From contig CAWETI010000002.1 in NCBI GenBank assembly GCA_963812015.1, positions 1,280,001 through 1,344,000 on the forward strand: 64,000 bases of DNA, written 5' to 3'. How positions within the stretch are numbered: the first letter of the stretch is position 1; the number at the start of each line of letters is the position of its first letter. Below, in pieces: positions 26,006-27,441 of the stretch. Source of the stretch: an uncultured delta proteobacterium (GTDB taxonomy: Bacteria; Desulfobacterota; Desulfobaccia; Desulfobaccales; 0-14-0-80-60-11). Both the position numbers and the translations under genes were made by a program. The notes below the pieces were generated by a model, which was given only the letters and a program-made list of their open reading frames with translations, did not search any database and had not been told where the DNA came from.

Positions 26006-26112
26006 TTAACCTGGCAAGTCCGGTGCTCCATGCCTGCTTTTATGTCCATCTATACTCATTGTCAAAAGTTTTTTCTTATTCACCCCTCACCCTGACCCTT
26101 GTATGTTAAAGG

Positions 26113-26310
26113 GAACCGGTACATAGTTTGGTCATTAAAGAACCAGGCCATCAGGAGCAGTACTGCTCCTGATGGCGGCGTGGCAGGCCGTCCTAACCCT
26201 TGGTCCTTCAAGACCGCGGTGAGAGCGTGGCCGCCACGTCGCCCTGGCATTAACCCGAACAGTCGCCCGGGCTTTGAAGCCCGTATCTTGCAAGGACGGG
26301 AGGCCAAGGC
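26113..26310 (+). ncRNA. IS110 bridge RNA (ends approximate)
   Basis: 5' hairpin 26150-26174; target loop with CCTAACCCT and GAGAG; donor loop with ACAGTCGC and TGCAAG. Confidence 0.8.
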
Positions 26311-26315
26311 TTTTT

Positions 26316-27269
26316 ATGCACCCTGAATCCGTATTTGTCGGCATTGACGTCTCTAAGGACCAGTTAGACATCGCCATCCGGCCAGGAGAGGTCCGGTTCC
26401 GGGAGTCCAACAACGACTCCGGTATCCAGGCCCTCGTTGTCCGACTTTTGTCCCTTAAGCCCCAGCTCATCCTCCTGGAAGCCACCGGTGGCTATGAGAT
26501 CCTGGCCGCCGCCGCCTTGCGGCAGGCTGACCTGCCGGCCCACATTATTAACCCTCGTCAGGTGCGAGACTTTGCCCGGTCCTCCGGCAGATTGGCCAAA
26601 ACCGATAAGATCGACGCCGCGGTTCTGGCTCATTTTGCCGAGGCGCTGAAACCGTCCCTCCGACCCTGGCCAGATGAGCATCAACAGGAATTGGCCGCCC
26701 TCATGAGCCGGCGCCGGCAACTGGTGGAGATGCTGGTCATGGAGAAAAATCGCCTATCCATGACTTTCTCCCCACGGGTCCGCAGAAGCCTGCAAACCAA
26801 CCTCCAATCCCTTAAAGAACAACTTAAGGAGTTGGAGCAAGATTTGGACGACTTCATCCGTCAAAGCCCCATCTGGCTGGAGAAGGATCAACTCCTCCAG
26901 AGCGTCCCGGGAGTCGGCCCCTTAACCTCCCAAAGCCTGTTAGCCTGGGTGCCGGAGTTAGGCACCTTAAATCGCAAGAAGATCGCCGCCCTGGTGGGGT
27001 TGGCCCCCTTTAACCGCGATAGCGGTCAGATGCGGGGCAAGCGCACCGTTTGGGGTGGCCGGGCCCGGGTGCGGCCTCCCTTGTATATGGCTACGTTGGC
27101 CGCCTGCCGGGTCAATCCGGCCATCCGTGCCTTCTATCTCCGGTTGTTGGCAATGGGTAAGAGCAAGAAATTGGCTCTTACCGCCTGTATGCGTAAACTG
27201 TTAACCATCCTTAATGCCATACTTAAACAACAGCAACCCTGGTGCCCCCTTGCACCAGTTAACCCTTGA
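26316..27269 (+). CDS. IS110 DEDD recombinase/transposase
   Basis: GIDVSK, LEATG, KTDKIDA, SVPGVG, RDSG. Confidence 0.95.
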
Positions 27270-27441
27270 CATCTAACACAGTCGCTCTCCCCCATTGGGG
27301 GAGAGGGGAATAAAAGGAAAGAACTTTTGGCAATCGCTATAATTATGAAACGCTTCACTATCTATCAGCAGTCAGCTTTCAGCAAAACCTTTGGATTGGC
27401 GCCGGCGTCTCAGGTGGAGTGCGCCCCGGGCGCCTTTCCTT

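Follow-up and report, generated by a model that had tools for sequence, protein, structure and literature searches.

The bridge-RNA system has been known since 2024 (Durrant et al. 2024, PMC11208160). In IS621 of Escherichia coli the bridge RNA is 177 nt long (Durrant et al. 2024, PMC11208160; Hiraizumi et al. 2024, PMC11208158), and bridge RNAs have been predicted for 85.7% of IS110-group elements (Durrant et al., PMC11208160). In elements of the IS110 group the RNA is encoded in a long left end (LE), the right end (RE) is short (PMC11208160), and long subterminal inverted repeats are absent. The 3′ side of a guide loop is the reverse complement of the core and the right half-site over 4-7 nt (PMC11208160). 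We abbreviate the left and right halves of target and donor as LT, RT, LD, and RD, and their guides as LTG, RTG, LDG, and RDG. The RDG of IS621 is split: A157-U158 contact donor positions 14-13, C162-G165 contact positions 11-8, G161 forms a G.T wobble pair with T12, and two U residues are extruded from the duplex. Directly behind the RTG, a dinucleotide acts as handshake guide to donor positions 6-7 (PMC11208158). Mutation of D11, E60, D102, D105, or S241 abolished IS621 recombination (PMC11208158). The promoter formed at the junction of the ends has its -35 element in RE and its -10 element in LE (PMC11208160; PMC11208158), and for integrated IS621 only weak bridge-RNA expression was reported in 2026 (PMC13626964). 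ISPpu10 and ISPpu9 of Pseudomonas putida are IS110 elements that insert in repeated intergenic palindromes (bioRxiv 10.64898/2026.03.19.712850; PMC12288879), and for ISPpu10 the target stem-loop has been reported as a second specificity determinant (bioRxiv 10.64898/2026.03.19.712850).

On the plus strand of the window (the whole stretch of 64,000 nucleotides that was analysed), we found a 1187-bp IS110-group element that consists of a left end of 216 nt, a gene for a recombinase of 317 amino acids, and a right end of 17 nt (Table 1). The overall best explanation, which we regard as very probable, is that it is an intact RNA-guided member of the group with an IS621-like bridge RNA. The initial annotation had assigned 26091-27308 to the element; the element is there, its proper limits are 26100-27286, and the remainder of the longer interval is target flanks. 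The CT cores described at its borders are in place: the left junction reads ...CCCTCACCCTGACC-CT followed by TGTATG, with the core at 26098-26099, and the right junction reads ACAGTCG-CT followed by CTCCCCCATTGGGGGAGAGGGG, with the core at 27285-27286.

Table 1. Features of the IS110-group element and its flanks, in window positions
Feature	Position	Strand	Remarks
LT CCTGACC (26091-26097) and left CT core (26098-26099)	26091..26099	+	Lies in the REP-like repeat CCCCTCACCCTGACC-CT; one base off the guide CCUAACCCU (G for A, LT position 4)
Insertion sequence	26100..27286	+	1187 bp, one CT core counted at the right end; identity between copies stops at these bases
RD TGTAT	26100..26104	+	Relatives begin likewise with TGTAT or AGTAT
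-10-like hexamer TATGTT	26102..26107	+	Predicted to act in a promoter in the circular form only, where right and left ends meet
5′ stem-loop, 13 bp	26147..26176	+	Helix 1: 13/13 pairs with compensatory changes in relatives; helix shorter in many relatives
Target-binding stem-loop (predicted)	26177..26240	+	Basal stem, internal loop, top hairpin 26201-26216; helices 2-4 paired 91-98%; 18/18 pairs compensatory
LTG CCUAACCCU	26192..26200	+	5′ side of loop 1; equals LT7 + core, top strand
RTG	26218..26225	+	3′ side of loop 1; core + CTC, reverse-complemented, gives GAGAG (26221-26225)
Handshake guide CG (by position)	26226..26227	+	Follows the RTG directly; complement of the CG of ACAGTCG (donor positions 6-7); by analogy with IS621 nucleotides 81-82
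Donor-binding stem-loop (predicted)	26241..26310	+	Basal stem, inner stem 26254-26257 with 26297-26300, top hairpin 26268-26283; most conserved RNA part in relatives
LDG ACAGUCGC	26259..26266	+	LD7 + first core base; identical to 27278-27285; 8 nt as in IS621 A123-C130
RDG, read as split	26285..26294	+	GCAAG 26290-26294 with CTTGT, including a G.T wobble; AU 26285-26286 with AT; CUU 26287-26289 bulged
Recombinase gene, 317 aa	26316..27269	+	ATG at 26316; PF01548 2.8e-25, PF02371 2.4e-18
-35 hexamer TTGACA	27266..27271	+	Right end; overlaps the stop codon TGA 27267-27269
LD ACAGTCG (27278-27284) and right CT core (27285-27286)	27278..27286	+	
RT CTCCC... and remaining REP-like hairpin	27287..27308	+	CTCCCCC-ATT-GGGGGAGAGGGG

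Among the long ORFs, family support was confined to the recombinase gene. Both of its Pfam domains scored above the curated cut-offs, which places the protein, with its DEDD and Tnp20 domains, in the IS110 recombinase family. It aligned end to end with the recombinases of IS621 (8wt6, 8.8e-37, phmmer) and ISCro4 (9t56, 1e-37). Counted along the alignment, D11, E55, D97, D100, and S236 correspond to D11, E60, D102, D105, and S241 of IS621, the five catalytic positions. The protein is already present in public collections under the label 'transposase' only, and its N-terminus had no match in the searched part of the supplementary data of PMC11208160.

The locus shares with IS621 a DEDD and Tnp20 recombinase with the five catalytic residues, the CT core, the RD TGTAT, and a repeat hairpin as target. 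As described for IS621 in the publications, its RNA lies in the left end and comprises a 5′ hairpin followed by target and donor loops; an LDG of 8 nt, an RDG that reads as split and has its G.T wobble opposite donor T12 (the pair to which the 'wobble' of the initial annotation refers), and handshake dinucleotides are common to both, as are the -35 hexamer in the right end and the -10 in the left end. The TBL scaffold CCGU-[LTG]-UGG recurs in an IS621 library oligo of Durrant Supplementary Table 3, which reads CCGU-[LTG]-UGG...[RTG]-AU. Unlike IS621, the element has a distant protein (8.8e-37), another target, a longer 5′ hairpin, and an RDG bulge of 3 nt instead of 2. LD positions 6-7 are CG here, whereas those of IS621 would be AT, to judge from the AU of the oligo. 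The stem-loop of the target lies on the RT side in the present element, whereas in ISPpu10 it lies in a 5′ extension of the target.

The closest named elements that we found were those of the ISEc32 / ISKpn42 / ISBcen8 / ISBmu9 / ISSm3 protein cluster (ISfinder names in Durrant Supplementary Table 1). The relatives from uncultured bacteria (L018-L097, 47-61% amino acid identity) have a matching RNA architecture and near-identical donor ends, and both their LTG and their RTG differ in nearly every lineage. Identity was 47.1% to the ISEc32 family transposase on E. coli plasmids and 49.4% to an IS110 element on a Klebsiella plasmid, which we take to be ISKpn42; both values are below 50%. On protein identity, the element is a separate IS by usual naming practice, because its best relative is only 61% identical. 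There was no blastn match (distant mode) for the element in 5,426 complete E. coli genomes. An IS110 element of an E. coli plasmid (L103), whose protein matched 8wt6 at 3.1e-49, was considered as IS621 and rejected.

The host genome (3.96 Mb in 6 contigs) contains 8 full copies, which differ at 0-4 of the 1187 positions and are all flanked by the CT core on both junctions. The sole private difference of the window copy among the 8 is a synonymous TTG for CTG. A ninth insertion event is represented by a 56-bp left-end stub behind CCTAACC-CT. All 9 sites share xxxxACC-CT, and a CTCCC-like sequence follows the 8 full copies. When the element was removed from the window in silico, CCCTCACCCTGACCCTCTCCCCCATTGGGGGAGAGGG was restored, and this exact string occurs uninterrupted at C2:853119 and C3:44436; the two paralogues bear out the claim that removal restores the REP hairpin.

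Other copies had been expected at CCTRACC-CT-CTC. This held in so far as all 8 full copies lie at sites that match the guides with 0-2 mismatches. The LT was CCTAACC in three copies, CCTGACC in three (the window copy included), ACTAACC in one, and CCAAACC in one, and the RT was CTCCC in six, CTTCG in one, and CCTCC in one; past the core, pairing of the RTG with CTTCG and CCTCC (2/8 sites) is poor.

The occupied sites were compared with the guide-predicted 14-mer CCTAACC-CT-CTCCC. One site had no mismatch, five had one, and two had two (n = 8). Among the empty genomic sites none was perfect, 21 had one mismatch, 49 had two, and 374 had three, which gives occupancies of 1/1, 5/26, 2/51, and 0/374 for 0, 1, 2, and 3 mismatches, respectively. 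The sole perfect 14-mer target in the genome is thus occupied, and the fall in occupancy is the gradient expected if guide pairing picks the site and single mismatches are tolerated. Sites with G at LT position 4 were occupied in 3/8 cases and those with A at position 3 in 1/13. With 7/8 natural sites lying 1-2 bases off the 14-mer, the element appears to tolerate guide mismatches.

The copies could also be fossils of a past burst, left by a bridge-RNA IS that is sound in design and inert in this host now. The contigs of four metagenome runs contained no RE-LE circle junction and no empty allele of the window locus, which would agree with such an inert element, as would the reduction of one copy to the stub. 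However, the 8 copies are nearly identical, their ends are all intact, the private change of the window copy is synonymous, the catalytic residues are preserved, and the only perfect target has been used, and we consider it unlikely that the element is inert. The question bears on present activity alone and not on the nature of the element. On its sequence, the element is an intact and probably still mobile member of the IS110 group, on a branch with IS621.

Metagenome contigs that skip ~1,200 bases were considered as empty alleles and rejected; other letters lay between the two sides, which makes them other copies of the repeat. One metagenome run contained a variant of ~96% identity, left flank included, and another run contained identical pieces. 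Among the sequencing runs listed for the stretch, none was an RNA run.

The element lands in the 5′ arm of a GC-rich hairpin, and at 6/8 insertion sites a GC-rich hairpin starts from the core. Nine intact full copies of the main repeat type remain in the genome, in addition to interrupted ones, and a second repeat type (…CTCTCCCAAACC-CT-CTCCCCCAACCCC…) provides 12 one-mismatch sites. The CTCTCCC..GGGAGAG hairpin gave 34 matches on both strands, a number in which the palindromic pattern counts a site twice. The target had been called a REP. A small family of repeat hairpins does exist; however, there was no evidence for a link with RAYT, as no RAYT gene lies beside the repeats and the three weak Y1_Tnp matches have no such repeat alongside. 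'REP-like' is therefore the safer word than REP in the strict, RAYT-linked sense.

A CCCTCTCCC...GGGAGAGGG hairpin was present in 7/10 of the relatives' host genomes checked. The idea that it is confined to hosts whose IS targets it was rejected, since it occurred in 4/5 such hosts and in 3/5 others (reversed-pattern control, 0/10). Six relatives (L089, L092, L025, L032/L033, L077) aim at CT-CTCCC or CT-CACCC beside CCCTCTCCC...GGGAGAGGG hairpins, and the Durrant supplementary data list other IS110 elements aimed at this repeat type, with targets that read CCCTCACCCTAACCCTCTCCC and an RNA of different build (PMC11208160). It is conceivable, albeit somewhat less probable than the contrary, that several unrelated bridge-RNA lineages have converged on the same CT in one type of hairpin, CCCTCACCC-N-CCCTCTCCC...GGGAGAGGG, in very different bacterial groups, and that in the present genome the spread continues via one-mismatch variants. 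The lineages concerned would be the window element, the six relatives from other groups, and the differently built IS110 RNA of Durrant. If this were true, the sites would be a natural record of tolerated guide mismatches.

The minimum free energy fold of 26145-26312 consisted of three stem-loops (-88 kcal/mol, z = -4.9), and 0/200 shuffles folded as well. The 5′ hairpin of the initial annotation is present, with 13 bp at 26147-26176 instead of the proposed 26150-26174. An Rfam 15 scan of 25800-27600 (E up to 10) gave nothing above the gathering score, and the best match, sX15, was at chance level with 23.8 bits vs 55. We collected 80 loci encoding protein relatives with 47-61% amino acid identity, mostly from uncultured bacteria of many groups. 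A single-sequence model, built from the window sequence and its trimmed fold, recovered a homologue, full-length or partial, on the coding strand immediately before the CDS at 54/80 loci.

In 40 distinct relatives, with the window left out, compensatory changes were observed in 43/48 pairs, and 89.2% of the paired cells could pair, compared with 36-45% when the partners were slid by 1-3 columns; 0/500 shuffles reached the observed values, in alignments that were fitted to the structure of the model, which favours that structure. The covariance model of these 40 relatives gave a single match in the window, exactly at 26145-26312 (141.9 bits). Folding and covariance models had been suggested as a check on the left end, and both came out in support of the three stem-loops. 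The same model matched 20/22 loci of further relatives and the left ends of three enterobacterial elements, ISEc32 (38 bits), the Klebsiella plasmid IS110 (43.6), and an E. coli plasmid IS110 (28.1); in the first two the match lies shortly before the CDS. In the host genome it matched all 8 copies and one weak extra place. The location of the match in the 216-nt left end, with 17 nt on the right, is the layout of the IS110 group as opposed to that of the IS1111 group.

The four guide strings listed in the initial annotation, CCTAACCCT at 26192-26200, GAGAG at 26221-26225, ACAGTCGC at 26259-26266, and TGCAAG at 26289-26294, are all found in the sequence, and all four follow the loop rule, in loop 1 as well as in loop 2. 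The LTG was identical to LT7 + core at 4/9 insertion sites (the stub counted) and had one mismatch at 5/9. A possible extension of the RTG, GGUGAGAG (26218-26225), would have one U.C mismatch at every site. The LDG ACAGUCGC is followed by a C that mismatches the core T. The split RDG is a scheme carried over from IS621, and the fine correspondence of LDG, RDG, and handshake guide to their IS621 counterparts is suggested by position.

As a control for chance, the left end was shuffled 20,000 times with its dinucleotides preserved. The LT + core 9-mer (<=1 mismatch) arose in 450 shuffles and the LD 8-mer in 52, whereas GAGAG arose in 3,390 (17%) and the RDG 6-mer (<=1 mismatch) in 12,070 (60%); all four guides arose jointly in 0. 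Matches of GAGAG and of the RDG thus mean little singly, and the LTG, the LDG, and the combination of four guides are well beyond chance.

The relationship between guides and flanks was then analysed in the relatives. Their ends were placed by the conserved donor motifs and not by the guides, and the flanks were compared with the loop-1 columns of their own and of all other loci. Rows without a donor motif were dropped; of the 48 usable rows, once identical guides had been collapsed, 29 had a recognisable left end and 30 a right end. The results showed that: (i) core + RT5 matched the 3′ side of its own loop 1 at a mean of 6.47/7 positions (perfect in 19/30) and that of foreign loci at 3.79, and (ii) LT7 + core matched the 5′ side of its own loop 1 at 7.03/9 positions (n = 29) and that of foreign loci at 4.75, with 0/10,000 permutations reaching the observed value in either case. 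Inspected by eye, the LDG covaries with the ends, AACAGTTGC occurring with ACAGTTGCT (ACAGTTG-CT) and AAAATCGC with ATAATCGCT (ATAATCG-CT), and so does the RDG, in which GCAAG with CTTGTAT becomes GCTAG with CTAGTAT. The donor halves ACAGTCG and TGTAT are nearly conserved in the family, and AACAGTYGC and GCAAGG are found in most relatives. Of the target and donor specificity that had been proposed as the element's own, the donor part is qualified by these halves, which are not distinctive.

The structured left end might alternatively be a mere 5′ UTR that controls transposase expression, as a terminator or a leader masking the ribosome-binding site; the protein would then pick the site, and the matches between loops and flanks would be incidental. 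A UUUUU does separate the ATG from the basal stem of the second stem-loop, whose paired 3′ side includes GGAGG (26300-26304). However, the loop-1 sequences vary with the relatives' own flanks on both sides, at a level that no permutation reached, and the loop-2 sequences vary with the ends. In 36 relatives, anywhere from -5 to 50 nt separate the stem from the start codon, many of these relatives have a separate Shine-Dalgarno sequence, and masking of the ribosome-binding site is therefore not a conserved feature. It is thus very improbable that the left end is a leader and nothing else, although it could both regulate and guide. An IS1111-type element with a seekRNA in its right end would share the protein family, but this explanation is close to negligible, as the right end has just 17 nt (27270-27286) and the RNA lies in the 216-nt left end, in the manner of the IS110 group.

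The left-end RNA, in our judgment, very probably has the architecture of an IS621-type bridge RNA, as the initial annotation had proposed. We base this reading on the domains and five catalytic residues of the recombinase and its alignment with IS621 and ISCro4, on the covarying RNA in the left end, on the location of 8/8 copies at guide-matching sites, and on the covariation of guides and flanks.

At the sequence level, the RE-LE joint reads TTGACA, 17 nt, and TATGTT. In most relatives the right end has CTTGAC at the matching distance from its terminus, and the left end has TGTAT-N-TT or TGTATAAT. In the integrated copy, host DNA takes the place of the -35 hexamer.

A possible mechanism can be drawn from the published work on IS621. 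The element would excise as a circle, and its joined ends would form a sigma-70 promoter, TTGACA-17-TATGTT. This promoter may drive the transcription of a bridge RNA of ~200 nt, roughly 26114-26312, and then of the recombinase gene behind it. The RNA would fold as a 5′ hairpin and two stem-loops, and its second internal loop (ACAGUCGC and AU...GCAAG) is predicted to pair with the joined ends of the element, ACAGTCG-CT-TGTAT. Bound to the RNA, a tetramer of the DEDD/serine recombinase would swap strands at the CT core, and this strand exchange would leave the element in the 5′ arm of the GC-rich REP-like hairpin. Transcription, binding of RNA by protein, catalysis, and activity at the present day are thus expected of the element by analogy.

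The element is a previously unnamed and typical bridge-RNA member of the IS110 group, and the picture of how IS110 elements work is unchanged by it. With it, one more natural bridge recombinase is well documented, whose guides can be read and for which nine insertions in nature are known. For engineers of bridge systems it may offer an extra orthologue, and its sites could serve as a modest body of natural data on the mismatches that are tolerated.

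Elsewhere in the element's own genome, a 56-bp remnant of its left end breaks off within the 5' hairpin of the bridge RNA and continues into unrelated sequence. It, too, is immediately preceded by CCTAACC-CT, the left target and core, and is therefore the record of a ninth insertion. Among the full copies, the one in the window is alone in having T at window 27147, where the seven others all have C. Both codons (TTG/CTG) encode Leu, so that the difference is synonymous, and the base was also C in one metagenome run.

The covariance model built from relatives' bridge RNAs gave a further, weak match on the same contig. 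Upstream of this match stands ...CCCCCT-CT|TGTATC, and the match itself includes CCCGAACAGTCGCAAGGGC. The homology ends inside the donor loop and is not followed by a recombinase ORF; the match appears to be a truncated left end from a second, distinct IS110-group element. Two relatives displayed a duplication in which CT-AGTATGTT... was repeated, as if two left junctions stood in series.

Features in the window, in the element's own genome and in relatives
Feature	Position	Note
GC-rich palindromic repeat, ccccctttcctaaagggggg...tccccctttttcaaaggggga	window 25927-26004	just upstream of insertion site
Weak bridge-RNA model match, 34.7 bits	C2:999070-999199 (own genome)	outside window
Left-end stub of element, 56 bp	C2:1263945-1264000 (own genome)	outside window
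Short tandem duplication of left-end start	L084:1264-1300; L097:1233-1310	two relatives

At the 3' end of the bridge RNA (window 26297-26315), GGAGG lies on the 3' side of the donor-loop stems, after which come UUUUU and at once the ATG of the recombinase. In this element, the RNA 3' end could both terminate transcription and mask the ribosome site; among relatives, the stem-to-start spacing is not conserved.

The palindromic repeat had an extreme word depth in wetland metagenome contigs, with values reaching about 13,600, and is therefore part of a very abundant repeat or low-complexity motif. When the host genomes of ten relatives were searched for the target-type hairpin CCCTCTCCC-N(2-18)-GGGAGAGGG, the reversed-pattern control gave 0 matches in all ten, and the hairpin itself was present in seven (L089, L092, L025, L033, L022, L036, and L041), at 1-25 per strand. 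The hosts carrying it belong to very different bacterial groups.
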